A stretch of DNA of 64,000 bases from an uncultured Nitrososphaerota archaeon (GTDB lineage: Archaea > Thermoproteota > Nitrososphaeria > Nitrososphaerales > CADDZS01): the NCBI GenBank assembly GCA_963799845.1, contig CAWCYI010000006.1, positions 1,088,001-1,152,000 on the forward strand, in the 5' to 3' direction. Under the pieces are notes generated by a model. It searched no databases, was not told the DNA's origin, and worked only from the letters and a program-made list of their open reading frames with translations. Of the stretch, positions 4,209 to 42,067 are shown in pieces (position 1 is the first letter of the stretch; every line of letters starts with the position of its first letter). The position numbers were made by a program, and so were the translations under genes.

Positions 4209-5272
4209 AAAGAAAACACTCCACCATATGGCCAGGCTTTGCTTCCAAGAGCTTTGGTCTCTTTTCCTTGCAAACTTTTATCGCAAACGGGCACCTCGGT
4301 TCAAATCGACACCCCGTCGGCGGATAGAGCAAGTTTGGAACATTGCCGGGTATGGGTTCCAAATTCGTGTCATCTTTGAATCCTGATGGAATGCAGGAGA
4401 GAAGACCCTTGCTGTATGGGTGAAGAGGATCGGAAAAGAGATCATAAACGTTAGCTATTTCCACGATCTCGCCGGAATACATCACTATCACTTGATCAGC
4501 CACCTGACTTGCCACTGCAAGGTCGTGGGTCACAAGAAAGATGCTCGTACTGACTTCGTTCATCAGTTCCTTCATGAGCTTCAGAACTTGGGCTTGAGTC
4601 GTGACATCAAGTGCAGTGGTGGGTTCATCCGCAATCAGAAGGGACGGCTTTTGAGAAATCGCCATCGCGATCATCACTCTCTGTCTCATCCCCCCGGATA
4701 GCTCGAACGGATAACGCTCGATCACCTGCTCCGGGTCTGCAATTCTAACAAGTTTAAGCGCTTCGATTATTTCATCTCTGAGGTCGGAGCTCAAGTGCCT
4801 CCTGAATCTCGGGATCCTCGATATTCGAATTGTTTTCGAGCTGTAAGTCTTTTGCATCACATCGCTGTTCGAAAGATCTGATTTCTTTGCTCGTCGAACT
4901 TCCCTGACGAGGATCGCCTCTGCTATCTGATCTCCAACCTTGTAGACAGGATTCAGACTGGTAAGCGGCTCTTGGAATATCATTGCAATCTCCGTTCCAC
5001 GGAATTCTCTGCGTTGCCGTTCATTCAGCGGAACCAGATCTGCATCTTTGTAATTGATAGAACCACCAGTAATTTTCGCGGGGGGCATCGGCAGCAGACC
5101 AATAATCGAGAGGCCTAGGGTGGACTTGCCGCAGCCTGACTCCCCCACTACAGCGATTCAGCTTGTTCTTCGGGACCTCAAGGCTGACGGCGTCCACGGC
5201 CTTGAGCTTTCCCCCGGATGCTGAGTATTCTATCGTAAGATCTTTAACCGATAGCAGTTTTTCTTCTGACAA
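4198..5272 (-). CDS. dppD: ABC transporter ATP-binding subunit (DppD/OppD-like), one-base frameshift near 5157-5160
   Basis: ORF 5021..5272 (LLSVKDLTIEY...KAVDAVSL) joins ORF 4198..5148 (GESGCGKST, LSGGMRQR) as KNKL-IAVVGES when one base is removed. Confidence 0.9.
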
Positions 5273-5322
5273 TCGTTTTTCACAATCAGTTTAAGAATGT
5301 CTCAGAGCTCGTGGGACAAAAG

Positions 5323-6363
5323 TTAGATTGTCGAGCTCGGATTGATCACACCTTCAAGTTTTTCGCCGTTTATGAAATTTTGCACCTGTTTTGCGACAAT
5401 CTCAGCGCCCCGAAGCGGAACTTCCCGCGACGCACCTGCGATGTGCGGAGTGATGAACACATTGTCCATCGAAACAAGTGGATTATCTGGCGATACAGGC
5501 TCCTTCTTCATGACATCCAAGCAGGCTCCGGCTATTCTACCGTTCGTCAATGCCTCCAGCAGTGCGGATTCGTCGAGCAAGCTGCCGCGGGCAGAATTGA
5601 TAAAGTACGCACTCTTCTTCATTAACTCGAATTGTTTCTTTCCAAACATATTCTCGTTTTCTTTCGACTCACGCGCGTGCAGGGAGACGAAATCCGATGA
5701 GGCTATCAGAGTATCGAGATCGGCGGATTTGATACCGGGAGCTTCGATCTTTGATTTGTCGATGAACGGGTCGTATACCAGAATGGACATTCCGAACGGG
5801 AGAGCTCTCTTAGCCACCCGCGATCCCACGTTTCCATAACCAACAAGTCCTAGTGTTTTTCCACCCAGTTCATGACCGAAAAAACTGTCGAAGGTCGAGC
5901 GATCGAACTTTCTCTTTTCCCTAAGGAAGATGTTAGCTCTTGATAGATTTCTCGCAAGAACTAACATTACGCCCAAAACATAGTCAGCAACAGCTTCAGC
6001 GTTTCTGCCGGGCGCGGACACCACAGGAATGCCCATGGCAATAGCGGCATTGACGTCGATATTCACCGGCCCTCCTCGCGCGCAACAGATGAGTTTCAAA
6101 TTCGGCGAGGCGTTCATCACCTCGTCTGTAACTGGTGCGGCATGTACCACCAGAATATCTTCGTCCTTGAGCTCTCGAGCAATCTGCTTTGGATTTCCCG
6201 AAAACTCTCGAATGGATTTCTCCGACTCAGTAGAGGGGTTTAGGCGATCGGCTTCATCCATCTGAATGTATCGTATCCGGTTGTCCGGAACCAAAAATGA
6301 AAAGGCTGTTCGAAACGTATCAACCGGCACGTAGAGATCTGCTGCAATCAAGATTCTTTTCAA
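5323..6363 (-). CDS. D-isomer-specific 2-hydroxyacid dehydrogenase (SerA-like)
   Basis: GLVGYGNVG, INSARG, LDV..EP, TPHIAG. Confidence 0.9.
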   Translation of the reverse strand: MKRILIAADLYVPVDTFRTAFSFLVPDNRIRYIQMDEADRLNPSTESEKSIREFSGNPKQIARELKDEDILVVHAAPVTDEVMNASPNLKLICCARGGPVNIDVNAAIAMGIPVVSAPGRNAEAVADYVLGVMLVLARNLSRANIFLREKRKFDRSTFDSFFGHELGGKTLGLVGYGNVGSRVAKRALPFGMSILVYDPFIDKSKIEAPGIKSADLDTLIASSDFVSLHARESKENENMFGKKQFELMKKSAYFINSARGSLLDESALLEALTNGRIAGACLDVMKKEPVSPDNPLVSMDNVFITPHIAGASREVPLRGAEIVAKQVQNFINGEKLEGVINPSSTI

Positions 6364-6409: not shown

Positions 6410-6433
6410 TGAATTGGTGTGCACGAAGCCGTG

Positions 6434-7895
6434 ATGCGAACAGCTGGTAAGCCAGCGTTCTGTGTTATCGATGTCGGAACCGGCGGAATAAAATGCCTCG
6501 TATTTGACTCGAAAGGTTCGCTGGCTTTCAAGGAAAGTTCCCCGATTGACTTCTTGCTGGATGGCTATGCGATCAGTTTCGATCCATCGTCAGTCTGGAC
6601 AGATATCTGCAGAATGACGAGAAAAGCCTCGAGGGAGTGCACAAAGAAAAAACTTCAGATCGTCACTGTAAGTTCCACGAGCATGCGTGAGGGGAACGTC
6701 TTCTACGACGCCGAGGGAAACGAGCTGATTAGCGGTACCGAATTTGGACGCCAGGGCATTCATGGAAGCAGCAGAAATTCAGGGATCACCAGGAGATGCA
6801 ATATATCTTTCATCAGGACATTGGCCTTCACCGATATTCGTCGCTAGCCGGCTAAAATTTCTAGCGAAGAACAATCCCAACCTTTTCAAAAAAATTCTCA
6901 AAATCTCCATGATCAATGATTGGGTCTTGTTCAAATTCTCAGGAAAGATCGTTTCTGAACCAACTAATGGTTGCGAGACAGCCCTCTTTGATTTGAAGAA
7001 GCGAGACTGGAGCGATGAGTTGATCCGCGAGTGCTCTTTCGATCGCTCTTTGTTTCCCGAGATTAGAGAATGTGGTTCACTCATAGGTTCTGTTGTGAAG
7101 GATGCGAGCAGGAAGAGTGGTCTGAACGAACATACATCGGTAGTAGTTGGAGCTGCTGACACTGAATCGGCCGTTGCAGGTTGTGGGTTATTCGACGAAG
7201 GAAATGTAGCCGCCGTCGCAGGGACAACCACACCTGTCCAAGCAGTAACAGAAAATCCTGTGTTGGATCCCGAGAAAAGAACTTGGACCTGCTGTCACGT
7301 TCTTCCGAATCGGTGGACGCTGGAGAGCAACGCAGGCGCTACGGGACTCGTATTCAACTGGTGGGCCAAAATGACGGGGGAGGATTTTTCGGTTCTTGAC
7401 CTTGAAGTGAAAAAGGAGAATCCGGCTCCGGGAAAGGTGATAGTGAACATCGGGACGAGCCTGATGAACGCGCGATATCCCCACCCAATCGTTGGCACGA
7501 TCCGGGGCGTGAACCCGTGGACTCCGCGGGCTGAAGTTACACTGGGCATCCTTGAAACAAATTGCTTCAGCGTCAGGGCAAATCTCGAACAGATTGAAAA
7601 GGTGCTTGACAAGAGATTCGTCGAAGTGTACTTCTGCGGAGGTGCGTCAAAAAGCGAGATCTGGAGGAAACTCCAGTCGAACATTTTGGGTAGGACTATC
7701 CTAACGTTCGGCGAAGGCGAAGCAAGTGGAAGAGGTGCCGCGATGCTTTCGGCCGTTGCCATCAAAGAATTCACAGACATGAGTGAAGCGTCAAAATCAT
7801 TTCTGAGGCGAAAGACATCAACCAAACCGGATGGAAAGATTTTCGAAAGCTACGAAGTCTTATATCAGAACTGGCTAAACGGCATAAACAAATAG
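6434..7895 (+). CDS. FGGY family carbohydrate kinase (LsrK-like motifs), one-base frameshift near 6727
   Basis: IDVGTGGIK, STSMREG, restored ELLAVPNLDARA, GAADT, AGTT, CGGASKS; two overlapping ORFs join by removing one base. Confidence 0.88.
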
Positions 7896-12836: not shown

Positions 12837-13692
12837 TTACTTCGAGCTGACGCCGACTTTCTTGAAGACCTGTTCGAGGTATTCGCGCGAATCCCGCATA
12901 ACTGAATCTACGTCGTTTGGAAGTTCAGACCAAGATTGAGTGCAGATGTAGCCGTTGAAATCGATCTCGACGAGAGCCCGCACGATTCCTTCCCAGTCAA
13001 CCGATCCCTTACCAAGGGCTTCGTGAGTCCACTTTACACCGTCGTTGTCCGCGCCGTGGACGTAGCAGAGGTGCTTTCCGGCCCGTCTGATATCGTCCAT
13101 GAAATTGCGGTAGCTGATGTTTTGCTGGGCGGTATCGTAAATTATCTTGACGCAAGACGAATCCAATTCCTTGATCATATCCAGTGCGTCGTCTACTGTT
13201 ATCATTAGAGGGCTCTCTGCAATGTACTGGGGGTGGAGACCGAGGATAAACTTGGTTTTCTCAGCTTCTGCGACGAGTTCGTGGAGGGCATCCATCGTCC
13301 ACTTCAATCCCTGCTCCTTGGAGGTGCCGTAGAGGACGTGACCAGTTAGGACATTCATCAGTGGGCACCCGAGTTCATCGGCGAGTTTGATGTTGTCGAT
13401 GTAGTACTGGACCGTCCGGTTGCGGATGCTTTGCCTCGGACTGCTAAAGTTATACTGCAGTCCCAGCCCACCGCCGGCAACCGCAAATCCCGTCAGCTTC
13501 AATCCTAGATCGGAGATCAGTTTTTTCAGGGAATCCCGTTCGTGCTTTGTGTAATCCTCCGGCCATGCGTGCGGCGCGCCAGTGTAGAGATCTACTCCCT
13601 TGTAACCCGCGTTCGCAATTCTTCTTACTGCTTCTTCAACAGTGGTCTGTCTGTTGTATCCGAGAGTGCAAGACTGAAAGTTTTATCGACAT
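12837..13692 (-). CDS. Sugar phosphate isomerase/epimerase (FrlC-like), one-base frameshift near 13673
   Basis: ATG at 13692 with GGTGA SD gives MSIKLS. The ORF frame is open upstream of 13502 as CTLGYNRQTTVEEAVRRIANAGYKGVEIYTGAPHAWP; 190 nt between 13692 and 13502 means one extra base. Confidence 0.85.
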
Positions 13693-14616: not shown

Positions 14617-14631
14617 ACGGAGTGACGGTTT

Positions 14632-16750
14632 CTGCCAAAAGACTATACAAACCTGAAGAAAAAAATTACCGCCGCCCTCGCGAGTCCTGAGAGAGGGAAA
14701 ACCCTTCTCGTCGCTGTGAAAAGGGGACGTGATGCGAGAAAAGACCAGCTCGCAACTCTTGAAAATCCGGAAGAATTTCGCCACGACATCAAACGGATCA
14801 AAACCGAGTCGATCGAAAATCTTGACGCCCTTCTAAAGACGTTCATCACAAACTGCCAGCTTAACGGTAACAGGGCCTTCGTTGCAAAGAACGGCACCGA
14901 AGTTGTAGACTACATACTTGATCTCGCGAACAAGTACAACGTTACGCTGATTGAAAAGTCAAAGTCGCTAACGACGGAAGAAATTGAGCTGAATCACCAT
15001 CTCCGAGAGGGAAAGAAAGATCTTCAGGTCGTTGAAACCGATCTCGGAGAGCGGATCATTCAGCTCGTGGATGAAAAGCCCTACCATCTTGTGTTTCCCG
15101 CGATTCACAAAACCCAGGCTGAGGTAGCCGAGATATTCTCGAAGGAAACGAAAAGTGAAATCCCTAACGACCTGCCTGCTATTATGGATGCGGTCAGGAA
15201 GCTTCTCAGACCCATTTTTCTGAATTCGCAGATCGGCATAACGGGTGCCAACATTGCTGTTGCCGAGACCGGTTCCATCGTTGTCGAGACAAATGAAGGA
15301 AATGCTAGGCTTGTCAGCGCCATTCCAGACATTCACATTGTCGTAGTCGGAATGGAGAAGATCATAGCTAACTGGGACGAAGCCTTGAAGCTCGTGATGG
15401 CGCATCCGATTAGTGCAACTGGGACGAGACTAACGAATTACGTTTCAATAGTCACGGAGAGGCTGCCGCTTGGAACTAATTCGCCCAGAGAGATGCACGT
15501 GATAATTTTAGACAACGGCCGATCCAAGATGAGGCAAGATCCGTGGCTGAAAGAAGGGTTGAACTGCATCAGGTGCGGTGCGTGTATGAATGCGTGTCCC
15601 ACGTACGGAGTGGTTGGCGGTCACGTTTTTGGCTACATCTACCCGGGTCCGATAGGCATCCCTTGGACGGAGGAGATTCACGGACTCGACAAAGCCGAGT
15701 TCGCTCATCTCTGCATCTCCTGCGGACTCTGCAAAGAGATTTGCCCGGCCGACATCGACATCCCAATGATGATCGCGAAGGTGAAAGAGAAGGATGTGGA
15801 TGAGAATGGACAGTTAACACCCAACAAAGTTCTTTCAAGATCTGATGATTTCGCGCGGATGGCGAGCGCGACTGCGCCGGTTTCAAACTGGGTGATCCAG
15901 AGCAGGATCTCTCGCAGTTTCATGAGTCGTTTCCTCGGCATTGAGAAGAAGCGGAAGCTACCGAGATTCACGAATCGGACCTTTGAAAAACGCTTCCCTT
16001 CAATGAAGCAAGCAATTGCAAATCCAAAAGCGCGGATAGTCTATTTTGTTGATCTCGTTGCGAACTATAACGAACCGGAGATAGGGATAAGGGCAGTCGA
16101 GCTGAATGCAGCAATCTGGAATCGAGACAGTCGTGCTGCCGAAGTTGAAGCCGAGTGGCATGCCATACGTTTCATACGGTGAGCTGCGGAAAGCAAAGAA
16201 GATCGCAGATTGGAACGTGAGCCTGCTCGCAGATTATGTAGAAAAAGGGTATGATGTCGTGGCAACCGAACCGACAGCTACCTACTGTCTGAAGGAGGTT
16301 TACCCAAAGCTTCTGGATAATTCAGAGAAAAGTCTCGCAGTGTCGGCAAGGTCTTTCGAATATTTTGAATACTTGGCTAAACATCGAGATCCGCTCAACC
16401 TAGGTAGAAGAAACTCCACAGCTGAAAGTAATACCATCGGCTTTCACATCCCATGTCATCAGCGCGCTCTCAGCTCCGGTAAATTCACAATCTCCGCACT
16501 TGAGACGGCCGGATACAGAGTGAAGGTGATAGAGACAGGAACCTGCTGCGGAATGGCTGGAACGTTCGGACTGAAAAAAGGGCCACTAGGGTACGACCTG
16601 TCCATGGCGGTGGGCAAACCGCTCTTTGACCTGTTCAATAATGAAAGCTCGATCAAGATCATTGCGACCGAAAGCAGCGTATGCAGCACACAGCTCACGG
16701 ACGGCACAAATTGCTCTCTCATTCATCCCTTGAACTTGATTTCATATTAA
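14632..16750 (+). CDS. lutB: LutB-type LUD/4Fe-4S protein fused to C-terminal CCG (GlpC-like) domains, one-base frameshift near 16104
   Basis: KSKSLTTEEI, ETDLGE, TNEGNAR, CIRCGACMNACP, CISCGLCKEICP. Joins to ORF 16106 as RAVEL-MQQSG, then HIPCH and CCGMAGTFG. Probable CTG start at 14632 after GGAGTGA. Confidence 0.85.
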
Positions 16751-16810: not shown

Positions 16811-17847
16811 TGTTTTTTCCAGAAATCATTTCGCATCTGTCAGGAGACCTCCATAGACAAAGGATATTCAAGAGCATCTAACTGCGGCATCTTCTCGTAG
16901 TAAGCCTGGGTTGGCGTCTTGAGGTCAAGGGCTCCATGAGGCCTCACTTCATTGTACCACTTCATGAACTCATCTATCGAGGAGAACCACTTGATCTTAC
17001 TCTCGAATATGTCGAAGAACTTCTCGATCTTGCCGTTCGTCTGGGGGTGGTTGACTCTTCCGAGGATGAATCTTATCTTGTGCTTCAAGAGACACCTCTC
17101 GAATTCTGTCATCCCCTTCTCCCTCCTCTCAGATTCCATCGTGTAAAATGTGGTTCCGTGGTCGGATAGGATCGATGCAGGTTTGCCGTGTTCCTTCATG
17201 GCGCTCTCAAGACAGGAAACAGAGTACTCCGAGGTCAGCGTTTCATGGACCCCAAATCCGGTAATGAGACGAGAAGCATCATCTTCATAGCAGGTGAGCC
17301 ACTTGCCCTTCCACCTCGGATCCTTTACCTCGTGCCAGTCCGTATGCCATAATGAATTCGAGTGTTCCCTCTCGTATCTGACCCACTTCCTCCTTATCCA
17401 CTTCTTCCTAGAGTTTGACGCAAAGGAGTTCATCAGGAGCACCCTGTGTATCCTGTTGTGGTTGATGTGAATCTTGCTATCGCTCTCGATCTTTCGTTCA
17501 AGGTAGAGGGCGTTTGCCCTATATCTCTGATAAGCATCAATGACGAGTGAAGTTTCCTCGTCGGTAATTGGAATGCTTTTCCTTCCTGGTTTCTTGAGGA
17601 GGAGAGGCACACCCCCACCTTTCCTGTGCTGGGCAAGTATCTGCTCAACCCTCCTCTTTGACACTCCGAGCTGGAGAGCAATGTTTGCGCAGCTCTCACC
17701 CCTTTCTCTAGCCCTGAAGAGGTAACTGATCTTGTCGCTATCAAGCTTCGCGGGCACATGTTTCCCGTAACGTTTTGTTACGCTCTTCCAAAACTCTCCC
17801 AGTCTACTCCTGTTTACCAGCTTGCGAAATAATTGTCGGAAAAGAGA
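16811..17847 (-). mobile_element. IS481-family insertion sequence (1037 bp)
   Basis: 25-bp imperfect TIRs (16811-16835 TGTTTTTTCCAGAAATCATTTCGCA and 17823-17847, 19/25 match) flanked by a perfect 15-bp direct repeat CTATTGAAACGAGAA. Confidence 0.9.
16840..17757 (-). CDS. IS481-family DDE transposase
   Basis: N-terminal HTH, WHTDW, DDASR, SDHG, HPQTNGKIEK, YNEVRPH. Confidence 0.93.
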   Translation of the reverse strand: MPAKLDSDKISYLFRARERGESCANIALQLGVSKRRVEQILAQHRKGGGVPLLLKKPGRKSIPITDEETSLVIDAYQRYRANALYLERKIESDSKIHINHNRIHRVLLMNSFASNSRKKWIRRKWVRYEREHSNSLWHTDWHEVKDPRWKGKWLTCYEDDASRLITGFGVHETLTSEYSVSCLESAMKEHGKPASILSDHGTTFYTMESERREKGMTEFERCLLKHKIRFILGRVNHPQTNGKIEKFFDIFESKIKWFSSIDEFMKWYNEVRPHGALDLKTPTQAYYEKMPQLDALEYPLSMEVS

Positions 17848-19056: not shown

Positions 19057-19743
19057 AATATTGAGACATCTAAGATGCCTAATTAACTAACATGGAATGA
19101 CGCTAGTGCGGTCAAATAGATTGTAGGTGACGAAGGAAAGCCAAGATGAAAAGATTTTCGAAACCGAATAAGTCTCGTCGTGATCTGAGTACTAATCCAC
19201 CGGCCTCCGTCCTTGCTTGACTGACGAGTTAGATCGCCAGAGTATGTCGATGTGACGATCGTGTTTCCTGATCTTTGGAAAGACGGAGATGACAGTTGCA
19301 AGAAAGTGTGGAATGGTTAGAGAGAGCTTACGAGCAATATCAAGTTATTTTCCAAGAATCAATTCGGAACATTATTTCGAAGATCTTCACCCAGATCCCA
19401 GATTTTGCCTCGTGTGTGTGATACGCTCCGAACGACCGATCACTCGGGATTTTGGAGATTTTTGCGTTCCAAATGGGATTAGGTCACCTGCACCCGAAAC
19501 CCGGCTTAACCGAATCCCTAGGGATTCGAGACTCATGAATCCACAAATGTGGATTCCTGTGAAATAGGTCAGAGCCTCTGGAGATTCGGACTGAAACTGG
19601 TCCGGAACATCTTTTTTGGACAAGCTCGAAGAATCAAAGATGCGATGGGTTCGAATCGGATGGTCTTCGAACCCTATTTAGATGCCAATGGTAAAATCAC
19701 CGAGTTTTTCTGATATCTTATCAAGAATCGATGGGTAAAGGGA

Positions 19744-20409
19744 TTGTATCAGTTGGCCGATGAAAAAAATTCCAAAGAAACAACACCTCGTCTGAAGATT
19801 CAGACTCTTTCCGACCTGATATTCGGACTAGCTCTTTCCATAGGCGCTCTGACCCTGATTTCCCAGAAGCCTACCAACCTTCTTGAAATCGAGCTGTCTC
19901 TTCTCTATTTCGGTTTCGCTTTCTATGTGTTATCAAGCGTCTGGGTTAGATACTCCAGGATAATGTCTGTCCTCCCAGCAGAAACGGGGCCAGTAATTAC
20001 CATCAACATAGTCCTTCTTTTCCTCGTGTCGATCGAGCCCTATCTCTACAATCTCATGATCGGCTCCTCAAATGCTCCACCTCCAGGCCAGCTGTACTTG
20101 GGAACTACGACAAGCCTGTTTGCCGCTGATATGGGCCTAATTCAGCTCCTTCTAGCCTATCTTAGTTTTCAACTCACGGTAGAAGAAAGAAAGCTGATTC
20201 CAAAAGAACTGCTCAGAAACTACAGACTGTACACATATTCCAATGTTATTATTGCCGCATTGTTCTTAGTTTCCATACTTCCTATATTTTGGAGTTTCAC
20301 TATCTTCGGTATCCAGGCGAGGTTCTTGCTTTGGACGGGTTTTGCCGTGGTGGTGAATGTTAGAAGATTAGTAGAATTGAGATCCAAAAAATCGGTCGAC
20401 AAACGATGA
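19744..20409 (+). CDS. TMEM175 (DUF1211) family putative K+ channel
   Basis: IQTLSDLIFGLALSIGAL resembles RLEAFSDGVFAIAITL; about 6 TM helices. Confidence 0.75.
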   Translation: MYQLADEKNSKETTPRLKIQTLSDLIFGLALSIGALTLISQKPTNLLEIELSLLYFGFAFYVLSSVWVRYSRIMSVLPAETGPVITINIVLLFLVSIEPYLYNLMIGSSNAPPPGQLYLGTTTSLFAADMGLIQLLLAYLSFQLTVEERKLIPKELLRNYRLYTYSNVIIAALFLVSILPIFWSFTIFGIQARFLLWTGFAVVVNVRRLVELRSKKSVDKR

Positions 20410-20611
20410 AAGGCAAAATAGCCGCCGAGAAGCACCCCCACGCAAACCTCCTTTCCAACGCGGGCTGGCAGCTGCTACGAGTGACCTGTGGCTGATCATC
20501 GTGGCTGTATTTACATACATCATCTCTAAATTTTACTCACGGCATTATTATCAAGATTGGTAATCGTCTAGTATCAATAATTAGCGCGTTTCTCAACCAG
20601 CTCTGTAAAGC

Positions 20612-20619
20612 TGGAGGTG
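20612..20619 (+). promoter_or_regulatory. Shine-Dalgarno site
   Basis: GGAGGTGA 10 nt before ATG 20630. Confidence 0.6.
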
Positions 20620-20629
20620 AATAAGTGGA

Positions 20630-21013
20630 ATGGCTGAATCAAAAAGTTATTGTGGCAAGTGCGGAGCTCCAATCCCAGCTGGCGATTCATTCTGTCCCAA
20701 ATGTGGCACTGCTGTTGCAATGTCTCCTCAATCAAGTGCTCGAACATCATCTACTCCTCAGCAATTAGACTGGCGAGAACAAAGGCGCCAGATGAGAGCA
20801 GAAAGAAGGACAGAAAGATACAATCGTCCGGGCCCACATATAGGCGGACTCATAATTGCGACGATATTGATAGTGGCTGGTCTGGGCATCTTCTTCCCTC
20901 AACTCCCCTGGCAAGTGTTCTGGGGCTCTCTCTTGATTATCTTAGGACTTTGGATCGTCTACCTCTGGGCTACTAGAAGCAGAAGATACACATCCCCGAC
21001 AAAATCCCAGTAA
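20630..21013 (+). CDS. Zinc-ribbon domain membrane protein
   Basis: CGKCG...FCPKCG, Arg-rich linker, two C-terminal TM helices. Confidence 0.8.
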   Translation: MAESKSYCGKCGAPIPAGDSFCPKCGTAVAMSPQSSARTSSTPQQLDWREQRRQMRAERRTERYNRPGPHIGGLIIATILIVAGLGIFFPQLPWQVFWGSLLIILGLWIVYLWATRSRRYTSPTKSQ

Positions 21014-21044
21014 TTCCTTGCCAATCGGTGGCAATACGTTAGGT

Positions 21045-21084
21045 GGGCGATCCCCTAACCTTGATTGCCCGTCTCATCTTTTTT
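21045..21084 (+). terminator. Hairpin plus T-tract
   Basis: GGGCGATC/GATTGCCC stem followed by TTTTTT downstream of 21013. Confidence 0.4.
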
Positions 21085-21556
21085 GCAAACTGAACCGAAG
21101 ACAATTTTGCCTCCTTGAATAGGTGGAGCATTATCAGTTTTGATAAACGTCTCCATCGTTTATTTCCTATCTTCCTCATTGGATTAGCGCCCATCCACTT
21201 TTGAAAGGCGGAAAAATCCCTCAGAACCCTCGAATATTATGCAGAACTTGAATTAGGGTTCTGGTAACTTATAGGGACATAGAACCAAATTCTAAAGGTG
21301 TTAACTAGATGGACATGACGAATTTTAGATCTGTGAGGAGTTTTGAGCATTCAACACAAACTCTTACGAATTTTCCTTCATATTGAATGGATTCCATGTC
21401 TCTAACTCTGGTTGTTTTGTCGCACCTATGGCACTTCGTTATACGATTCAATGTGATCTCACTCAACTTGAGAGATGAAAGAGAGGTCTATTTTAACATG
21501 AAATAGGGGGAATTTTGAGGTTATTAACTGTCGGGACGCGGCACGAGAATCTTAGC

Positions 21557-21931
21557 TTAGGATGGCTTGTAACTTGTTAGGAAACGAACTATATCGACTT
21601 GCAGGGCATTATTAGAATTATTCCGAAGTCTTACAGTGTACTGCTGATTACCAATCGTAATCGGAAATGAGCTTCTGAATGTAGCGATTCGAGTGAAAAT
21701 AACAGTGGCAAAATGGATTCGACCTTCAAGATTTTCCTTGACTGTTCCTTCTGTTGCAGCCATTGGAATAGCAAGAAAAGCGATACCCTCTATCCAATTT
21801 ATTGTAGGCTCAACTGGACTTTGCTGAGTTAATTGCATTCGTATTATATCTTCGAAAAATGTAGAGTTCTCCTGTTCCACAATTTCATGAATTATTATTT
21901 CGGAAAAGGGGACGAATTTTACTATTGTCAT
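21557..21931 (-). CDS. Hypothetical protein (124 aa, AT-rich)
   Basis: Clean ORF with TATA-like element upstream; no recognisable motif. Confidence 0.65.
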   Translation of the reverse strand: MTIVKFVPFSEIIIHEIVEQENSTFFEDIIRMQLTQQSPVEPTINWIEGIAFLAIPMAATEGTVKENLEGRIHFATVIFTRIATFRSSFPITIGNQQYTVRLRNNSNNALQVDIVRFLTSYKPS

Positions 21932-22811: not shown

Positions 22812-22833
22812 CTTTGTCCGCTTCCAGAACTCG

Positions 22834-22877: not shown

Positions 22878-22935
22878 CTATATCCCCCCACCAGTCTCAC
22901 CCCCAAACCAAAAAAAACTAGGTAGAGAGATTACT

Positions 22936-23966: not shown

Positions 23967-24100
23967 TTACGCCAACTCTTTCTTGTATGGAAAGAAGTAT
24001 TTGAATGCGAGGAGGAGGTAAACTAATGGGGCTCTCTCTCCGTACATGAGTGGTAACTTTTCCTCAGACGCCATTTGCTTTGGTCAATTCTCCCAGGGGG

Positions 24101-24586: not shown

Positions 24587-24880
24587 TAGAGTGACGGATT
24601 CCTCGCTATCAAGGTTTTCCTCGTCGGTGCTGTTAAGTTGATGGGCCCTCCTTCAAGTTCCTCTTCCTGTTAACCATCGGGCCCTGAGCCGCGTTCTGGA
24701 TGATCTTCAGCCACTTAACTTAACAGCTATGTTCCTCAATATGAAATCAGAAATCGATCTTTTTTATCAATCCTTGAAATCTTGGATCTTTTCTTATTTC
24801 GTCAAATGAATGATCGACATTTGTCGCGAGAGTATAGCTTCTTTGTGATCTGGCCAGTGGGCATCCCTAAATCCAAGAGT

Positions 24881-25573
24881 TCATTCCTCGACCGCGCCCC
24901 CACGCTCACGCAGGTGTCGACGGAGACTGTAGGAGGGATCCATCTCGCGTTTTGCTAGATAATCGTCAAAATCGAGCTGATCCCAGAGCCTCTTTCCGGC
25001 TTTGATCTTCTCCGCCTGGCTGCGCTCAACATTGTGAATTGACTTTGCGACTTTCAAAATTTCCTCAAGCTTACTTAACGAAACGAAAATGACTCCATCG
25101 TCATCCGCGAAAACAATGTCGCTGCTGTCAACTGCAAAACTCTCCCAATCCGCGGATACAAGGTCGAGGGGGCCTCGCTCGTCCAAGCGACGAGGGCCCG
25201 CAGAAAGTGATCCGTAGCTGAACACGGGGAAACCAATTGGCACGAGTTCACTCGTGTCCCGAATTAGACCTCTCACGACGAAGCCTGACAAGCCCCAGGT
25301 CCTAGCTTCGAGCACTGTAAGATCGCCGATGCAGCTTTCGTCGGTTCTTCCTTGATTATCGATAACTAACACGTCCCCTGGAATTGATTTCTTCATGGCT
25401 TCGATGAAAACATCGACGCTCCCCCTGTGACGGGCTGGCAGAACCCTTCCTGCAACGCGCATTCCACGGACAAGTGGATGTATTCCTGAGGGCGCCATTC
25501 GTAGAGGAATGTGCAGCCGAACGCAGGCGTCCGCTATAAGCGGAGTTGTTAGGTCAGCAAAAATATCTTCCAT
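24881..25573 (-). CDS. RraA family protein (HMG aldolase-like)
   Basis: TPLIADA, GDVLVID, CIGDL, GLIRD, FADDDGV. Confidence 0.88.
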   Translation of the reverse strand: MEDIFADLTTPLIADACVRLHIPLRMAPSGIHPLVRGMRVAGRVLPARHRGSVDVFIEAMKKSIPGDVLVIDNQGRTDESCIGDLTVLEARTWGLSGFVVRGLIRDTSELVPIGFPVFSYGSLSAGPRRLDERGPLDLVSADWESFAVDSSDIVFADDDGVIFVSLSKLEEILKVAKSIHNVERSQAEKIKAGKRLWDQLDFDDYLAKREMDPSYSLRRHLRERGGAVEE

Positions 25574-25947
25574 GGGACCACAACCAATTGAAATCTTGGG
25601 TGATAAATCTATGATCCAGCGTCTAACTCCGCAGAATTCCGGAGCTTTACCTCTTACGAAAGCTGCCTCACTTTGCGAATGCTCAGGCGCGACAAACCGC
25701 TCGATTAGTCTAGTATCTCATATGAAACATTCAGATATCGGGTTGGAGGTAACAAATTGAACCCACCTATAAATAGGATAGTTCCGAATCCCATCCCCTC
25801 CGCGCCGATTCTTGCAATATAGAAGCTACAGAACCAAAGAATCGACTGTTTCTCTCGCTGACAGATATTTTGAGAATCAGTGACAGGTATTTTGAGACGA
25901 ATGACAGGAACTTTGAGAAGCGACAACTTTCAGAGAGAGAGCTGAAA

Positions 25948-25974: not shown

Positions 25975-26133
25975 TTGTGGCGAAGATTTTCGACCGTCAG
26001 TGAGAAGAAATCTCATTAGTCCTCGCTAAACGTCAAATTCTAATTCCATCCATTTGTTGTGATCGGTTGCTTGATCTTACCATAAAGCGTAAAGCAAAAT
26101 TTTCAAATTGAGCCATGAAGAGCAGGCTGCAAA

Positions 26134-27495
26134 TTGAAAGTCGCAATAATTGGAGCCGGCAGTGCCGTCTTTTGGTTGTCATTGACCAGAGATTTCTGTA
26201 CCATGAATAGTGCTTCCGGGAGTACTTTCACGCTTGTCGATATCAACAAGGAACGATTGGATGCGGTCTATGATTTGGGAAGCCGCTACATCAAAGACCT
26301 TGGAACGGACATCAAACTCGAAAAGACGCTCGACCGTCGAAAGGCGATGGAGGGAGCAGACTTTGTTGTCAATACGGCAATGCCAGGCGGGCACGAGCAT
26401 CAGGAAGCGATGAGAAGTGTCGGAATGAAGCATGGGTATTACATGGGAGTTGACAACGCCGAGCACAATTTTGTCTGGGATTATTTCACCATCTTGGGAT
26501 ACAAGCAGTACAATCTAGCCCTCGAAATTGCGAGGGACATCGAAGAGATCTGCCCGGACGCATGGATGATGCAAACAGCTAATCCAATTTTTGAAGTCGC
26601 GACATTACTCCGGCGCAACAGCAAGATCAAGGTGGCCGGGTTTTGTCCCGGATACCACGCCGTTCACCACCTCATGTTTGCAGTTGGCTTGAGCCCAGCT
26701 GAGGTCGATTTCCAGGTTGCAGGGTTCAATCATTGCATCTATCTAACCAAATTCAAGAACAAAGAAACGGGAGAGGATGCCTATCCCCTACTAGATGGAT
26801 GGACGAAAACAGGGGCTCCCGAGCTTTGGAAAAATCATGACCTTGGTCTTTGGACCGAGACAGTTAGCCCTGCTGCTGTTGACATGTACGAACTCTACGG
26901 GATGTATCCAATTGGCGACACAGCGAGGTGTTTCTCATGGAAGTACCACTACGATCTGGAGACCGCGAAAAAATGGTACGGCGAAATCGGCGGTACCGAT
27001 TCAGAGCTTGGTCTCCAGTTGTGCTTAGATCGATTTCAAGGCAATGTCGACAGGATGTTCAGGCTCCTAAAGAACCCCAATCTGAATCTCACCAAAGAAA
27101 TTCGTCCCTCGAAAGGAAATGACGAATTCTCCGATTTCATAGATGCTATTTCATTGGGAGAGGAAAAGCGCCTCGTGTTGAATATTCCAAACGAGGGCAT
27201 ACTTACTCAATTTCCAAATGACCTTTCGATAGAGGTTCCTGTCAGCATCGTCAATGGAAAGTTGTACCCAGAACACGTGGAACCTTTTCCAAGCCGTTTG
27301 CTCAACTTTGTGATGAGGCCGAGGATGCTGAGGATGGAGTGGGCTCTTGAGGCTTATGACAGTGGAGACAAAGAGATGCTGGTTGAAAACCTAATTCGTG
27401 ATCCCAGGACAAAGTCCGAGGCGCAGGCGAGAGAGACGATCGACGATCTGCTCAATATGCCCCTCAATGCTGACATGAAGGCGCATTACAAGTGA
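26134..27495 (+). CDS. Glycoside hydrolase family 4 (Thermotoga alpha-glucosidase/glucuronidase-like)
   Basis: IIGAGSAVF, TANP, GFCPG, GFNH, PIGDTAR, DPRT. Confidence 0.92.
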   Translation: MKVAIIGAGSAVFWLSLTRDFCTMNSASGSTFTLVDINKERLDAVYDLGSRYIKDLGTDIKLEKTLDRRKAMEGADFVVNTAMPGGHEHQEAMRSVGMKHGYYMGVDNAEHNFVWDYFTILGYKQYNLALEIARDIEEICPDAWMMQTANPIFEVATLLRRNSKIKVAGFCPGYHAVHHLMFAVGLSPAEVDFQVAGFNHCIYLTKFKNKETGEDAYPLLDGWTKTGAPELWKNHDLGLWTETVSPAAVDMYELYGMYPIGDTARCFSWKYHYDLETAKKWYGEIGGTDSELGLQLCLDRFQGNVDRMFRLLKNPNLNLTKEIRPSKGNDEFSDFIDAISLGEEKRLVLNIPNEGILTQFPNDLSIEVPVSIVNGKLYPEHVEPFPSRLLNFVMRPRMLRMEWALEAYDSGDKEMLVENLIRDPRTKSEAQARETIDDLLNMPLNADMKAHYK

Positions 27496-29521: not shown

Positions 29522-29875
29522 CTACCATCGAAAGTAGTATCCTCTACGACGAAGATCGGATTCGAGTTCCTCCTTCCTCGCTCTTATCAGTCTAGCCATG
29601 TGAAGAACGCTTTCATCCGTCAATTCCTCGAGTTCTTTTGGACTGAGCTGCCGCTTGTAGTCATAACTCGAATTGAGAGAACCTTCAATGAAATCATCGA
29701 TCTTTAGCAGTGGCGTCTGCCCATTTTTTGAAGAGACGTATTCTTTCAGCGCCGATCTTATCACACCTGTTAGGCTACTACCTTCATCTTTCCCAATCAA
29801 AATTGCGGCATCAAGAACCGCCTTGTCTTCCTGCCTGAAGTTCAACGGGTGCACCCATCTCGGCTTTAACGTCAA
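29522..29875 (-). CDS. Ribbon-helix-helix (CopG-like) DNA-binding protein
   Basis: HPLNFRQEDKAVLDAA...EGSSLTGVIRSALKEYV; TTG start at 29875 with GAGG upstream. Confidence 0.6.
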   Translation of the reverse strand: MTLKPRWVHPLNFRQEDKAVLDAAILIGKDEGSSLTGVIRSALKEYVSSKNGQTPLLKIDDFIEGSLNSSYDYKRQLSPKELEELTDESVLHMARLIRARKEELESDLRRRGYYFRW

Positions 29876-29977
29876 GGTATGAACTATCCTCAATCTGTGA
29901 TGTTGTACTGCGTGCATGTACTGCAGCGCTCAGGGTAGATACGTTTCCAATGCCTCCGGATGTCCCTTCCCCTGGCT

Positions 29978-30458
29978 TTACAACTCTATCATTGACTGAA
30001 TCTCGACATACTTCGGCTCCCAGTTTCCTGCTTCCTTCTGTGCCCTCGCTATCCCTGTGACTGTGGGTTTCCAAATTCCAATGCTGTCCTCGGTAGCCGG
30101 ATAGAGTTGTCCCTTCTCGACCAGGTTTTTTCGTGAGAATTTTATTACCGTTTCAACGACGTTCTTTTTAGATTCGGAGTAAACAGACTCGTAAATCGGT
30201 AGCGGTAAGTTCACGATACCACTTGCTTTTCACTTCCTCCAAAACAAATTTCGTCCGAACTCCGGACAAATGAGATTCAGATAAGACGCAAAGTATTGGA
30301 ATTTCTGGACTGCTTCGCGCCGGTGATCTCGTGGTGGCTGAGACGAAATTCCTGTAGTTCCTCCGTCGTCCCCGGAACGATTCGTTTTCTTGTAGATCAG
30401 AATCCTCCGAGATTCCTCTTGGATCCTCTCCAGTCGCTAATTTTGCTTCAGGTTTCAT
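29978..30458 (-). CDS. Winged-helix protein (Mrr N-terminal-like), one-base frameshift near 30187
   Basis: Two overlapping ORFs join as ELTATDLR-AVYSESKKNVVETVIKFSRKNLVEKG...GIWKPTVTG; total length 3n+1. Confidence 0.6.
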
Positions 30459-33749: not shown

Positions 33750-34011
33750 GTGGCGCCTAACCCTTATACATGATCTTTGCCCTAAAACGGCCGACATCTA
33801 TTTCAAAATAATCCTTAGAAGTTCGGAATATCTGGTAAATCTATTCTCATACAGATAAAACAGAATCTGAGTCGCCGAACTCGGGGAGTGCTCCTCTGTC
33901 AGTCGAACAAAGTGATGCAAATTCTTCACCTAACCTAACTCGACTGATAACGTGAAAATGTAATTGGCATAAAGCTCGCTCGTTTCAAATATAGATAAAT
34001 AATCCAATTCG

Positions 34012-35769
34012 GTGTCGAGAAAGAAATCTCTCAGCGCTGTCGATCGCCACATGGACAAACAGGGAAAAATCGCATTCATGGATGGGGAAGAGTATCTACT
34101 CTGGGAGTCGGGGGTGGGGCGCGCGATCCGGGCGAATGCACCTCAGTTGACTTTGCAGGAACCGAAGGACTTGGTGAAGTTGCCGATTACGGTCGCGCTA
34201 ACAAAGCACTCGAGCCGGCGCGGGGACGCCATGTTGGAATATCGGCTGGGCCTGAACGCAAATAGCGTCAAGATCACCGGCACAGCTATGGTGAGCTTCA
34301 CTCTGCCTCATCAGGATGAGGGTGACGCGCTGTTGTGCCAAGTGGAATTGGCGTTTCGCGAGCTGGTCAGGTCGAATGTGACGGCGGAGTTCTCGTTTGA
34401 CTTGCAGTGTCGAGCACCGGAAAAGGTAGTTATTCCACAACGTGACGGAATTCTACAGACGGTGGCGTTCCCGGCTGGGTGCTGTTTTAAGCTGGGGCAG
34501 GCGGCGAATGACGGTTCTCCGTTGGGGATGCCGGTCGTCGGATATGTTTGGGACGACCTGCAGTTAGCGGTGTCAGCTGACCCGTATTGCGGGTGTGCCA
34601 TAAACGGAACTACCGGCAATGATGGTATCCAGATTTCGGTGGCGACGAATTATCCAGGATCGGTTGTGCCTGTGCAATCGGAACGACGAACGTTTGTGCT
34701 GGAGTTTCACCGCAAGGGAGCCGACGGAACATTACGGAGCTTTTACCGGACGATACCGGAGATCGAGCCGGACGCGCCCTGGACACAAGCGATCCATTTG
34801 GTTTATTTCGATTACCTGTCGCAGGGGGGCGAAGGATGGTTCAAGGATCTCAAGGTGTTGGCGGAACGAATACCCTCGCAGAATCGCGGCCACGTCGCGG
34901 TCTGTTTGCATGGCTGGTACGACTATTTTCAGCAATACGGTTACGATCATCCGCACAGGGTGTTGCTCAAGGAGTGGACAGCGTTCCCTAGCACGTACAA
35001 AGTGCCGATGAGCCTTGCAGAGATGCACCGGCGTTTGAAGTTCGCGAAGGACCTCGGCTTCCGGGTGCTGCTCTACTTTGCTGACGGGACGAACAGTGAT
35101 TCGGGTGCACCGAATTTTCGCAAGGAGTATTTGCTGAAAGATAAAAACGGCGAGACGTTTTCGGGTTTTAAGGGACCGGATTCCGTGGGACAGCCGTTGA
35201 TGATGGATCCGAGCGTTCCGGGACTGCGAGAGTGGTATAGGGGCTACCTGCGAGCACTACTGGATGAATACGCACGGGTCGTCGATGGGTTCGTGTGGGA
35301 TGAAACGTTTTACATTCCGGCGGATTTTATTTCTTATTCACAGGCAGAACCGGCCCATGCAGATCGCGCGATGATGAGCCTGGTGTCGGAGTTGACGCAG
35401 ATGGCACAGTCGTATCACCAGCAGAATCCGGACCTTGTGTTCCTCGCCTCCGATTGTGGGCAGACCAGCTATGCATTGGTCGCAAACGGCACGTTTCAGG
35501 ACAGCACCATGGAGGAGGAGGCCTGGGGGCCGAGCATGTTCGCCAACTACCGGAATTGCCTTTGGAGTTGCAACTGGTTTCCGTTGCGGTACGCGGAACG
35601 AAACAAAATTGCCGCGGAGAAGTATGGTCTACCGCAAGGAGTATCCAATGGCTGGCAAGACAACTGCGGCCCGAGTCAAATGCCACCGGAGCTTCTCGAA
35701 GCGGTTTTGAGGCGATTCACCAAGAACGTGGAGTCCAGCCGGCAAAGGTTGCGGTACCTGATTTCGTAA
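34012..35769 (+). CDS. Hypothetical protein, putative glycoside-hydrolase-like TIM barrel; GC-rich
   Basis: LHGWYD, AKDLGFRVLLYFADG, MDPS, DGFVWDE recall GH27/31/36-clan barrels (inference). Confidence 0.65.
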   Translation: MSRKKSLSAVDRHMDKQGKIAFMDGEEYLLWESGVGRAIRANAPQLTLQEPKDLVKLPITVALTKHSSRRGDAMLEYRLGLNANSVKITGTAMVSFTLPHQDEGDALLCQVELAFRELVRSNVTAEFSFDLQCRAPEKVVIPQRDGILQTVAFPAGCCFKLGQAANDGSPLGMPVVGYVWDDLQLAVSADPYCGCAINGTTGNDGIQISVATNYPGSVVPVQSERRTFVLEFHRKGADGTLRSFYRTIPEIEPDAPWTQAIHLVYFDYLSQGGEGWFKDLKVLAERIPSQNRGHVAVCLHGWYDYFQQYGYDHPHRVLLKEWTAFPSTYKVPMSLAEMHRRLKFAKDLGFRVLLYFADGTNSDSGAPNFRKEYLLKDKNGETFSGFKGPDSVGQPLMMDPSVPGLREWYRGYLRALLDEYARVVDGFVWDETFYIPADFISYSQAEPAHADRAMMSLVSELTQMAQSYHQQNPDLVFLASDCGQTSYALVANGTFQDSTMEEEAWGPSMFANYRNCLWSCNWFPLRYAERNKIAAEKYGLPQGVSNGWQDNCGPSQMPPELLEAVLRRFTKNVESSRQRLRYLIS

Positions 35770-38277: not shown

Positions 38278-40406
38278 TCAGGCTTCGACAACAACCGCAA
38301 CTCTAGCAGACTTCACAGAGATCTTGCGTGACGAAAGTTGTGTGATCGGGTTTGTGAATGGTTCGTATACTTTGAAGCGCTTAGAATTTCCGCCGTCGAG
38401 AAGGACATTTACTCGCTTATTCACATCGCTAGTATTCATCAAGACAACTGCTTTCTTGTTAGCCTCCTTGTTGATGTGGACACCGTAGAGAATCCCCTCG
38501 GTCTCACCCTCAACAGTAGCGCCGACAGTATCTCTGAATTGTCCATTCCACAGATAATCACCCAGCTCCCTCCGGATTCTCACGATCTCTTTGATATAAT
38601 TTCCCAATTTCGGCGCTGAGGCGATCGTTTCATGCGCGTTATGAATTTCCACATTGATGACGTACCCGACTCTCAGACAATTGTTTATCGAGTGATAATC
38701 AAACTGATCTACACATGCAGTGAGCATGATCTCGGGAAAAGTGTATCTGCAAATGGGTGACCGATCCCAGTCTCTCAACCTGAAGAAACCTATGTTTGCG
38801 TACGGCCACAGGTAAGGAGGAGAGGCTTCGACTGATATCAGAAATTCCGGGTTGTACTTGCGACATACCTCGCTTATTCTCCTGAGCGTCTCAACTATGC
38901 CCTTGGAAAAGGCCTCGGCAGGCTTGTGACCATGGGTCTCATCGTAGCATAATCCGTAATCCGTGACTTTGTCTATTTCCAAACCGTTGAATCCCAGTTC
39001 CGCGACTTGCTCGAACCGTTCAACTATCAGATCCTGGTACGGCTTTGCATACGGACACATCAAAGCAAGCTGTCGGTACCCCCACTTGTTCTTCTCCGCG
39101 AAGGTGTGCATCCCGTATCCGATGCGCACCTGATTTCCGAATCTGTCTTTAGCAGCATATTTGTAGAGTTCTTTTTTGAATTCTCCGGTATTCACGTCCG
39201 CGACTTGGATGTTGACGAAGGGAAGCACCTTGACATCCAGCTTGTTTGCTTCCCTTATTCCTTCGGAGAGTTCCTCCCTAGTACCAAGTCTAGGGTCCGG
39301 GGAATAGTCTGGGTATCCCCTATCCATTCCTCCGCGGTGGAAGCCGGTTAAGTTGATAACATTCACTCCGTATTTTATAGCGTCTCTTGCCAACTTGGGG
39401 ATGTCCGAGAATCTGAAAAGAAGTAAATCGTCGGGATAACCAAAGACAACAGTCTCCCAGGTCATTCCTCCCGCCACCCAGTTTGGCCTCTCGGCAATCT
39501 TCATCCATGTGTCAACCCATCGGCGGTATCTGTCAGCACCACTATGCCAGTCGCCCTTGTGAAAGTTGATGCAGGCAGGCGCCGAGGCCCAGCTTTCACC
39601 CGGTTTGATGAACGGGAGCTTCGCTATGCTGCAGTTCACGCCTATCGGAGTATTCGGGCCTGCTTCTTCTCGTGTGGGCCATCGATCGAGCTTCCCCGCT
39701 GAACCATTCCGGGCTGGAGCTCAAAGTGGAAGAAAGTGACTTGAGGAGAAAGATCGTGGCTGGCAAGATAGATGCCTTCGTGCGTTTCGCCGTTACTGAA
39801 ATCAACCCATTGCATCGTCAATTCCCATGGATAGGCTAGCTCGAAATAATCATAATACTCGTTCCAATATGGAAAATAGCTCGGGAACCTGTCCAAAACC
39901 TTTCTTCCGAAGCTTGGAGTACCGGAGCCGTCCCATAGTGCGGCGGAAAACTCCGTTTTCTTTCTGTCTCTGATCCCGTGGAAACCGCCTAGCATTGGGG
40001 ACCAAACCTCCTCGATTGTGTACTTGCTTCCATTGCTTACAGATGTTGTCACCTGAATCTCGTTTTCCTCTGGCCCTAATTCGAAAGACTGTTTCAGACC
40101 TATCTCGAATGTACCGTTCTTATTCTGGAGATTGTCCCAAGACAGAGTGCATGAATTCTTTGCGCTTTCGAATCGAACGAGCTTCTGCTGTGAACCAACC
40201 AGATAGTTGTGCCTTAGTTCTGGAAGCGGTACGAGAAGTTTGAAGTTCGAAGCGAGTCTCGGCTCACCGATCGCTTCAAAATGCGATTTTTTGTGGAACA
40301 CGCTCTTGAGCGCCCCCGTTGCTATCTCAAACTTCAGCTTGAAGGTGTCGTTCTCAAGTTTGTATTGCATAATGACACAAGAAACCTTCTCATTATTAAG
40401 AATCAT
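38278..40406 (-). CDS. DUF6259-like putative glycoside hydrolase, one base missing near 39690-39697
   Basis: HKGDWHSGADRYRRW, GMDRGYPDYSPDPRLGT, MCP, GLEIDK, CYDETHGH. The two ORFs join as QRG-KLDRWPTREEAGPNTPIGVN. Confidence 0.75.
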
Positions 40407-40606
40407 TTACGTAAGATATGACGAAAGGAACACCATTGATTGAGTGGGAAATACCCCACCTTCAATATAGTCGTATACAGACATTTTTACTCATTCTAAT
40501 GGCGAAAAATTAGAAGGTTCAAAACAGAGTGAAAACATGGTTAGCTTTTTCACGACTTTCTTTAATTATGGCGTTGTAAACAGGATTACGAACAAGGGGA
40601 CAACAG

Positions 40607-42067
40607 ATGACTACAGAGATTTTGAATTTCATTTCAGGCCAGTGGGTAAAATCGGAAACCGGCGAGACGTTTCAAAACGTTAACCCGGCTCACACGTCAA
40701 TCCCGACGGGTGCTTTTCAGGCCTCAAGTAAGGAGGATTCGCGGAGGGCCATTCACTCCGCAGCAGAAGCTTTTCCGATATGGAGAAACACGCCTGCCCC
40801 TCAGAGGGGAAAAATTCTGTATGCCGCATCCAATATACTGGAAAGCCAGGCGGACGAGCTCTCAAAGATTCTGACGCAAGAAGAGGGGAAAACTATCGCG
40901 GAAAGCAAAGGAGAAGTCCAAAGATCGATAGATATTTTCCGATACTATGCCGGTATCGGCAGTCGCCTCGCCGGTAAAACCTTCCAGTCTGGAATCAAGA
41001 GAACTCTGCTCTACTCGGTCCGAGAGCCGCTTGGGGTAATCGCTATTATGACGCCATGGAATTTTCCGATAGCGATACCGACGTGGAAGATCGCGCCTGC
41101 CCTAATTTCTGGGAATACGATAGTTTTCAAGCCTGCGTCTCTTACGCCGCTGATTGCCCAAAAGATGACTTTATCTCTTGAAAAAGCAGGCCTGCCAAAA
41201 GGAGTCCTGAATTATGTTACCGGAGCTGGCTCGGTTGTAGGAGCCGAGTGAAGTGTCAATCCGGATGTAGATGCAATCTCATTCACCGGTTCGTACGAGG
41301 TTGGGTATGGCATTCAGAAAGCCCGTGCAAACTCAAGCAAAATAGCAAGGATTCAGCTTGAGATGGGCGGCAAGAACCCAACTATAGTCCTGCCAGATGC
41401 GAACTTGGATGAAGCAGTCTCGCTTGTCGCGAAGAGTGCATTTGGACTGACAGGTCAGGCATGTACTGCCACCAGTCGCGTAATAGTTCATGAGGAGGTG
41501 AAGCAGCGGTTCGTTGAGAAGCTGAAAGCCGAAGCCAATCAGACAAAAATCGGAGATGGACTGCAACCTGCTACGATGATGGGTCCGGCGGTTTCTGATC
41601 CTGAACTCCAGAAAGATCTTCGATATGTTGGCATCGGCATAGAAGAGGGTGCCAAACTCGTAGCCGGTGGTGAACGAATTAGGGGCGAAGGACTGGAGGA
41701 CGGATATTTTATCCGGCCGACGATATTCGACGAAGTTTCTTCAGATATGACAATTGCGAAAGACGAGATATTCGGCCCTGTTATCTCGGTGATGAATGCG
41801 AAAAATCTGGATGAAGCAATCCAAATCGCAAATAATGCCGAGTTTGGTCTGACTGCAGGATTATGCACCTCGAATCTCTCAAGCGCGCTCAGTTTCGCGG
41901 ACAAAGTTGATGCCGGAGTTATCAAGATAAACAAGATGACGACCGGTCTTGAGCTGCACGTGCCATTCGGGGGCTTCAAGAAATCGAGCGCGAACACGTT
42001 CAAAGAACAGGGAGAGGAAGCTATCGACTTTTACACCAGAACTAAGGCTGTCTACATCGGATATTGA
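40607..42067 (+). CDS. Aldehyde dehydrogenase (2,5-dioxopentanoate/KGSA dehydrogenase-like), in-frame TGA at 41249
   Basis: TPWNFP, FKPAS, FTGS, LEMGGKNP, GQACTA, EIFGP, PFGG. Both ORFs share a frame, separated only by GAG-TGA-AGT where Leu is expected. Confidence 0.9.

Follow-up and report, generated by a model that had tools for sequence, protein, structure and literature searches.

Introduction

Base modifications on which basecallers were not trained leave systematic errors in nanopore assemblies, and these errors survive polishing (PMC10687267, PMC11610603, PMC12392509); where a methylated motif is involved, only some of its occurrences yield assembly errors, which can fall within +/-5 nt of the modified base (PMC12392509). 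In the archaeal phylum Nitrososphaerota, a REBASE-based survey assigns persistent orphan methyltransferase (MTase) groups that produce N4-methylcytosine (m4C) at AGCT to all 8 Nitrososphaerales genomes and all 14 Nitrosopumilales genomes surveyed, and describes the AGCT MTases of the phylum as orphans without a nuclease (PMC10609329). Sequencing of a metaepigenome by the single-molecule real-time (SMRT) method reported AGCT to be 82-91% modified in both of the Thaumarchaeota metagenome-assembled genomes (MAGs) studied (PMC8919816), and the enzymes M.Nca01I, M.NspBD3I and M.TarMY3I are tabulated as AGCT m4C (PMC11033074). The phylum carries other marks as well, with N6-methyladenine (m6A) at GATC recorded in 27 of 29 Nitrososphaerota (PMC10609329). 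Here we describe a 64,000-nt stretch of DNA from a member of this phylum (the window, numbered from its first letter) in which seven protein-coding genes are each broken by a single lesion, six of these lesions being positioned inside an AGCT or 0-3 nt from one. We consider it likely that the lesions are long-read consensus errors at m4C-modified AGCT sites and that the genes themselves are intact.

The window was assigned to Nitrososphaerota by its nearest loci and proteins, which come from organisms named Nitrososphaerales, Thaumarchaeota or Nitrososphaerota archaeon; the nearest relatives, among them a related MAG represented by the contig L001, reach 96% amino-acid and 89% nucleotide identity. 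A preliminary description of this DNA, written in ignorance of its source, had stated that m4C methylation of AGCT is reported in Thaumarchaeota, and the published surveys agree (PMC10609329, PMC8919816); with the window coming from Nitrososphaerales (Thaumarchaeota), the statement is also borne out by the taxon. Both halves of our reading are already known in kind, AGCT m4C methylation being documented in the phylum and the type of artefact being known too.

Coincidence of the Lesions with AGCT

That all seven broken genes break at AGCT was the central claim of the preliminary description. Its letters and coordinates at the seven sites are all correct, and the claim itself holds for six of them, which were positioned without use of the motif, while for the seventh (S7) an AGCT origin is conjecture. 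The lesion intervals were set from reading frames, from Pfam and Protein Data Bank (PDB) alignments, from closer homologues and from nucleotide alignments to relatives. Nucleotide matches to the genome contigs of relatives cover only window positions 8.1-16.8 kb and 26.1-28.8 kb, so that comparison at the nucleotide level extends to S3 and S4, and S5 was compared by protein. The lesions are of mixed kind: five are gains of one base (S1-S5), one is a loss of one base (S6) and one is an in-frame stop (S7). Among the 64 open reading frames (ORFs) of the window that were scanned against Pfam, no other broken gene was found, as judged by eye, a procedure that ORFs without a family would escape.

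AGCT occurs 273 times in the 64,000 nt, or once per 234 nt, which is 1.10 times its expected frequency and shows no depletion. In the sequence as it stands, the motif touches four of the seven lesion intervals. When intervals of the same widths were placed at random 3000 times, AGCT reached four in none of the placements, and the best of the 136 strand-symmetric 4-mers reached four in 125. Once the two verified extra bases, at S3 and S5, are removed, AGCT touches six of the seven intervals; in 4000 random placements after this correction the best 4-mer reached at most five (in 9 trials) and never six, and AGCT itself never exceeded three. A binomial estimate puts the coincidence at 7e-9, or 1e-6 after multiplication by 136. 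Chance does not explain the presence of AGCT at the lesions. Three further palindromes described as methylated in the phylum (GATC, GTAC and CGCG) and two controls (CTAG and GGCC) touch none of the seven intervals; a GTAC lies at most 3 nt from S2 and a GATC at most 5 nt from S6.

These figures bear directly on the view that the lesions are unrelated pseudogenes or homopolymer errors, and that the link to AGCT reflects coincidence or a choice made within ambiguous overlaps. In its favour are the 125 placements in which some 4-mer did as well on the uncorrected sequence, the position of S6 at a run of four Cs, and the fact that S7 is more simply written as one TTA to TGA change. The intervals were nevertheless fixed by alignments and not by the motif, and the observed six of seven was never reached by chance, which leaves this view very improbable. 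Homopolymers in particular are ruled out as the general explanation, since a run of at least three bases coincides with a lesion only at S6, one of the seven.

Placement of the Individual Lesions

The seven sites are collected in Table 1, and the evidence by which each was placed differs from gene to gene.

Table 1. Lesions in seven genes of the window, with the interval given for each, the strand and extent of the gene, and the nature of the lesion.
Site	Interval	Strand	Gene and extent	Lesion
S1	5156..5163	-	dppD/oppD-like ABC ATPase gene, about 5272..4198	gain of one base, immediately 3' of AGCTG as read on the minus strand
S2	6723..6734	+	FGGY sugar kinase gene, 6419..7895	gain of one base within 6726-6734, from T of AGCT 6723-6726
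S3	13671..13675	-	xylose-isomerase-like TIM-barrel epimerase/isomerase gene, 13692..12837	extra base 13673 inside AGCT
S4	16100..16107	+	LUD-Fer4-CCG fusion gene, 14716 or 14632..16750	gain of one base at 16104-16106, immediately following AGCTG
S5	30185..30189	-	159-aa gene of no assigned family, 30458..29978	extra base 30187 inside AGCT (+ strand AGACT)
S6	39689..39698	-	DUF6259 gene, 40406..38278	one base missing between 39693 and 39694
S7	41246..41254	+	aldehyde dehydrogenase gene, 40607..42067	in-frame TGA 41249-41251, no frameshift

The two verified insertions lie within the motif itself. At S3, six codons into a gene that matches Pfam AP_endonuc_2, the plus strand reads AGACT, and alignment at the nucleotide level with either of two relatives (L002 and L014) leaves one gap only, at 13673; an intact AGCT stands there in L002 (encoding S-A-C), and L014 reads AGCG. 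At S5, the HMMER scan returned an intact homologue (P0361, 159 aa, 97% identity) that reads D-L-R-A-V-Y across the break, a reading obtained in the window only by removing base 30187, which restores AGCT. Both reconstructions had been predicted beforehand, as S-A-C and R-A-V, and the relatives bear them out. For the gene at S5, 1.84 billion cluster representatives yielded 40 homologues at E <= 0.001; the gene's earlier label as winged helix-turn-helix (wHTH) finds no support from protein families, as neither its pieces nor the intact P0361 match any Pfam family.

The insertion at S4 is fixed almost to the base by the alignment to L001, which contains one gap in 2140 aligned nt (89.3% identity), at 16105, with the AGCT kept in L001. 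Homologues of this gene are full-length single proteins of 677-708 aa that join LUD, Fer4 and CCG parts. The previous name LutB is too narrow for the gene, which is a LUD-Fer4-CCG fusion, and the same homologues rule out the arrangement in which LutB and LutA would be separate overlapping genes. As an observation in its own right, the N-terminus of this protein includes about 30 conserved residues encoded, at 14626-14716, upstream of GTG 14716, which is the first canonical start; the conserved stretch starts at CTG in the window and in L001 and at TTG in L002, and public gene calls differ.

S1 and S2 were placed through protein structure and profile alignments. At S1 the first frame ends at K-N-K-L and the Walker-A frame starts right after a TGA; from its first residue this downstream frame can be aligned with an Opp/Dpp ATPase (PDB chain 8j5q_D), and the spacing equals that of three paralogues within the window, which together place one extra base in 5156-5160, overlapping AGCT 5160-5163. 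The 89-aa N-terminal piece of dppD gave only chance matches against the PDB (E 0.4-1.1). At S2 one frame matches positions 3-92 of the Pfam profile FGGY_N and the second frame positions 102-245, and PDB chain 5ya0_A is matched over residues 23-115 and 119-515, so that exactly three residues are left for the junction; this, with the TGA of the incoming frame, confines the extra base to the range given in the table.

S6 adjoins AGCT 39689-39692 and sits within or beside the C4 run. Seven homologues (P0002-P0008, 57-72% identity) read Q-R-G-K-L-D-R-W-P across the position, and in the window these residues are split between two frames, Q-R-G and K-L-D-R-W-P, which identifies the lesion as one missing base.

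S7 differs from the rest in that both matches to Pfam Aldedh (1-198 and 203-461) lie in one frame, interrupted by a TGA. This is a conserved hydrophobic position: of 120 homologues, 119 could be read there, with L in 76, M in 20, I in 17, F in 4, V in 1 and S in 1. Recoding of this TGA, including as selenocysteine, is ruled out, since 117 of these 119 homologues carry L, M, I or F and TGA ends 7 of 18 genes. A derivation from GAG-CTG would take two edits, the loss of C and the gain of A, and a derivation from TTA only one. In the former, the gained A is similar to the base added at S1 and S4, and TTA is the rarest leucine codon (54 of 753, against 158 for CTG), with TTAA present at 0.35 of expectation. 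S7 fits an origin at AGCT, and that origin is here a conjecture.

Probable Integrity of the Interrupted Genes

Were the genes decaying, one would look for relaxed selection and several lesions per gene, and neither was found. In the comparison of the window with L001, the ratio of nonsynonymous to synonymous differences (pN/pS) comes to 0.050 for the part upstream of S4 and to 0.107 for the part downstream, the latter value meaning that the part which would go untranslated has evolved under selection. At S4 and S5 the gene halves are 91-97% identical to intact homologues, and relatives are in frame at S3 and S4 (by nucleotide sequence, in L001, L002 and L014) and at S5 (by protein, in P0361). 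With one lesion per gene, evidence of selection and in-frame relatives, the lesions either arose very recently or are absent from the DNA altogether, and the earlier proposal that these are intact genes is supported on each of these counts.

The lesions would be in the DNA, and translation would cope with them, if AGCT(GA) signalled programmed frameshifting or stop read-through. S1, S2 and S4 do have R-A-G-CTG-A in common, and in all three the shift has the same +1 geometry and the incoming frame contains a TGA. Beyond these three the resemblance ends: the lesions shift the frame in both directions or not at all, two of them lie inside the motif in the opposite strand orientation, and at S3, S4 and S5 relatives need no change of frame to encode these proteins. 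CUG-A is not known to be a slippery site, and with TGA in use as an ordinary stop in those 7 of 18 genes, recoding is scarcely credible here. The mixture of five +1 shifts, one -1 shift and one stop fits miscalling and not a single biological mechanism.

The other way for the lesions to be in the DNA is for them to be real and recent, with AGCT acting as a mutational hotspot, for example through a cognate restriction enzyme that cuts at AG^CT in sites that are transiently unmethylated, followed by imprecise rejoining; the resulting 1-nt scars would only just have inactivated the genes. AG^CT is the cleavage point of AluI-type enzymes, the insertions at S3 and S5 sit exactly at this centre, and the other lesions are all within 3 nt of the motif. 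A possible second sighting of S6 would point the same way. The protein P0001, which corresponds exactly to the truncated DUF6259 ORF (38278-39639, minus strand), belongs to a cluster of 4 members whose longest listed contig is 2,873 nt instead of 1.75 Mb, so that a second contig may carry the same lesion; if that contig is an independent assembly, S6 is reproducible and would be a true lesion or else a read error of the same systematic kind. A real hotspot is nonetheless improbable. Seven genes within 36 kb would mean that about a tenth of all genes are broken, which sits poorly with single lesions and strong purifying selection; relatives are intact at S3, S4 and S5; the AGCT MTases of the phylum are described as orphans, with no nuclease to do the cutting (PMC10609329); and the 1.10 ratio for AGCT argues against restriction pressure. 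In its broadest form, with real indels arising at a site-specific AGCT hotspot (whether self-restriction or repair scars linked to the MTase) that very recently broke about one gene in eight of the region, the idea is likewise improbable. If it were true, a free-living archaeon would have been caught at the onset of motif-driven gene loss.

Methylation or Sequence Context

The reading that we favour, consensus errors at methylated AGCT, can be laid out as a short chain of events. An orphan AGCT methyltransferase of the type typical of Nitrososphaerota would lay down N4-methylcytosine at AGCT, and the modified base would distort the sequencer signal over the few bases around it. The consensus would then, in certain contexts that are mainly C-R-AGCT-G-A, gain a base (S1-S5), lose one (S6) or perhaps do both (S7), and in the organism the seven genes would be intact and functional. 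Three links in this chain go beyond the sites themselves. The assembly is presumably a long-read one, given that the truncated LUD ORF of the window is listed on a contig of 1,751,265 nt; AGCT is presumably methylated in this genome, as the published surveys of the phylum suggest; and we infer that methylation, and not bare sequence context, causes the miscalls.

The last of these links is open to challenge, as the lesions are concentrated within a narrower context than AGCT. When each lesion is placed 3', C-R precedes AGCT at all seven sites, and lesions occur at 4 of the 16 CRAGCTGA 8-mers and at 2 of the 259 AGCT sites outside them (post hoc Fisher test, p = 1e-4). A basecaller or polisher could therefore be systematically weak at C-R-A-G-C-T-G-A itself, whatever its modification state. 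This alternative also gains from the published finding that modification errors are mostly mismatches, and from the comparison with L001, in which AGCT shows no excess of substitution. We regard it as unlikely for several reasons: the common core of the affected sites is the exact motif reported as methylated across the phylum (PMC10609329, PMC8919816, PMC11033074), the full 8-mer is absent at S5 and S6, 12 CRAGCTGA sites are clean (two of them sharing the 10-mer of S1 and S4), and no such context error is described in the literature searched, the coverage of which was limited.

Several observations weigh against methylation-driven miscalling and are best considered together. Only about 7 of 276 AGCT sites, or some 2.5%, are affected, and their concentration at CRAGCTGA could mean a pure sequence-context error. 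Errors induced by modification are published as mainly mismatches (C>T, G>A), with indels assigned to homopolymers (PMC11610603, PMC10687267), and the predominance of mismatches described for R9 and R10 data is not what the window displays, with its five insertions, one deletion and one stop. No excess of AGCT substitution was seen relative to L001, AGCT being retained at 7 of 11 sites where the figure over all 4-mers is 65%; the sample is small and the test weak, as silent mismatches would be invisible in the window. GTAC is reported as m4C in Nitrososphaerales too (PMC10609329), yet it is without a lesion here, and the Pfam scan matched none of the 64 ORFs of the window to an MTase family. 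To these may be added P0001 with its 2,873-nt contig, insofar as S6 might prove reproducible. We nevertheless judge consensus error at m4C-modified AGCT to be the likely explanation for the lesions.

Genomic Setting

The window has a G+C content of 48.2% and is densely coding. By the Pfam scan of its 64 ORFs it contains genes of sugar and organic-acid catabolism together with three sets of Dpp/Opp-type ABC transporter genes. The sugar genes form what can be called a carbohydrate-catabolic island, which comprises four GH4 paralogues (26119-27492, 56080-57429, 58382-59755 and 59866-61260), a GH78 alpha-L-rhamnosidase and a GH2 enzyme (50465-53149; 53172-55967), five xylose-isomerase-like TIM barrels, three GFO/IDH/MocA oxidoreductases and two family-5 binding proteins. 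Such an island is unusual for an order that is pictured as one of ammonia oxidisers.

The LUD-Fer4-CCG gene is followed directly downstream by an rve-type integrase ORF (335 aa, 16843-17847, minus strand), and nucleotide similarity to L001 ends at window position 16759; an insertion sequence probably breaks the synteny here. Several ORFs without a Pfam family, one of them of 588 aa, lie in 19256-25717, 29525-29929 and 34003-35766, and a tRNA scan of the window returned none. Over the whole window, TATA (0.27 of expectation) and TTAA (0.35) are strongly under-represented, and GATC (1.59) and TCGA (1.74) are over-represented.

Consequences for Annotation and Assembly

If the lesions are miscalls, the genes should be annotated as intact and not as pseudogenes, which applies to the Dpp/Opp ATPase, the FGGY kinase, the sugar epimerase/isomerase, the LUD-Fer4-CCG oxidoreductase, the DUF6259 glycosidase-like protein, the aldehyde dehydrogenase and the small conserved protein alike. 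Extrapolated from the window, the 1.75-Mb assembly probably contains a few hundred similar errors, and these would distort the metabolic reconstruction of a little-known, heterotroph-like lineage of Nitrososphaerales. Polishing that is aware of the motif (AGCT, and especially CRAGCTGA) would repair the assembly. More generally, a methylation motif can be revealed by frame breaks alone, from finished sequence; and should the errors indeed be indels driven by m4C, they would make up a new class of error, one that correction tools centred on mismatches do not target.

Comparison with Known Systems

Three bodies of work provide the closest parallels. Long-read indels at homopolymers resemble the lesions of the window in their outward form, being 1-nt indels that leave adjacent pairs of half-genes in an otherwise well-conserved genome, and they differ in that only one of the seven window lesions lies at a run of at least three identical bases.

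The orphan Type II m4C AGCT MTases (REBASE groups HG19 in Nitrososphaerales and HG11 in Nitrosopumilales) share the phylum and the order with the closest relatives of the window, and the 4-nt palindrome with its lesions. The Nitrososphaerales genomes in the MTase survey are reportedly those of ammonia oxidisers, and here the window differs, in that it holds sugar-catabolic genes and may belong to another family of the order.

The window also resembles the nanopore errors mediated by modification, as described for Dam and Dcm, for GCAGC/GCTGG in Listeria, and in the Hammerhead and Modpolish studies. In the accounts given there, errors likewise recur at one short motif, strike a subset of its occurrences a few bases from the modified base, survive polishing, and break or alter genes. 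The window displays recurrence at one motif beyond chance, partial occurrence, and lesions inside the motif or 0-3 nt from it, in six of the seven genes by placement independent of the motif. In the literature searched, which was limited in coverage, we met no account of nanopore errors tied to AGCT in Nitrososphaerota. The described cases and the present one part in the type of error, those being mainly mismatches and the visible lesions of the window being 1-nt indels in six of seven cases, and they part as well in the motif (AGCT with presumed m4C), in the archaeal host and in the narrowness of the context in which the lesions occur.

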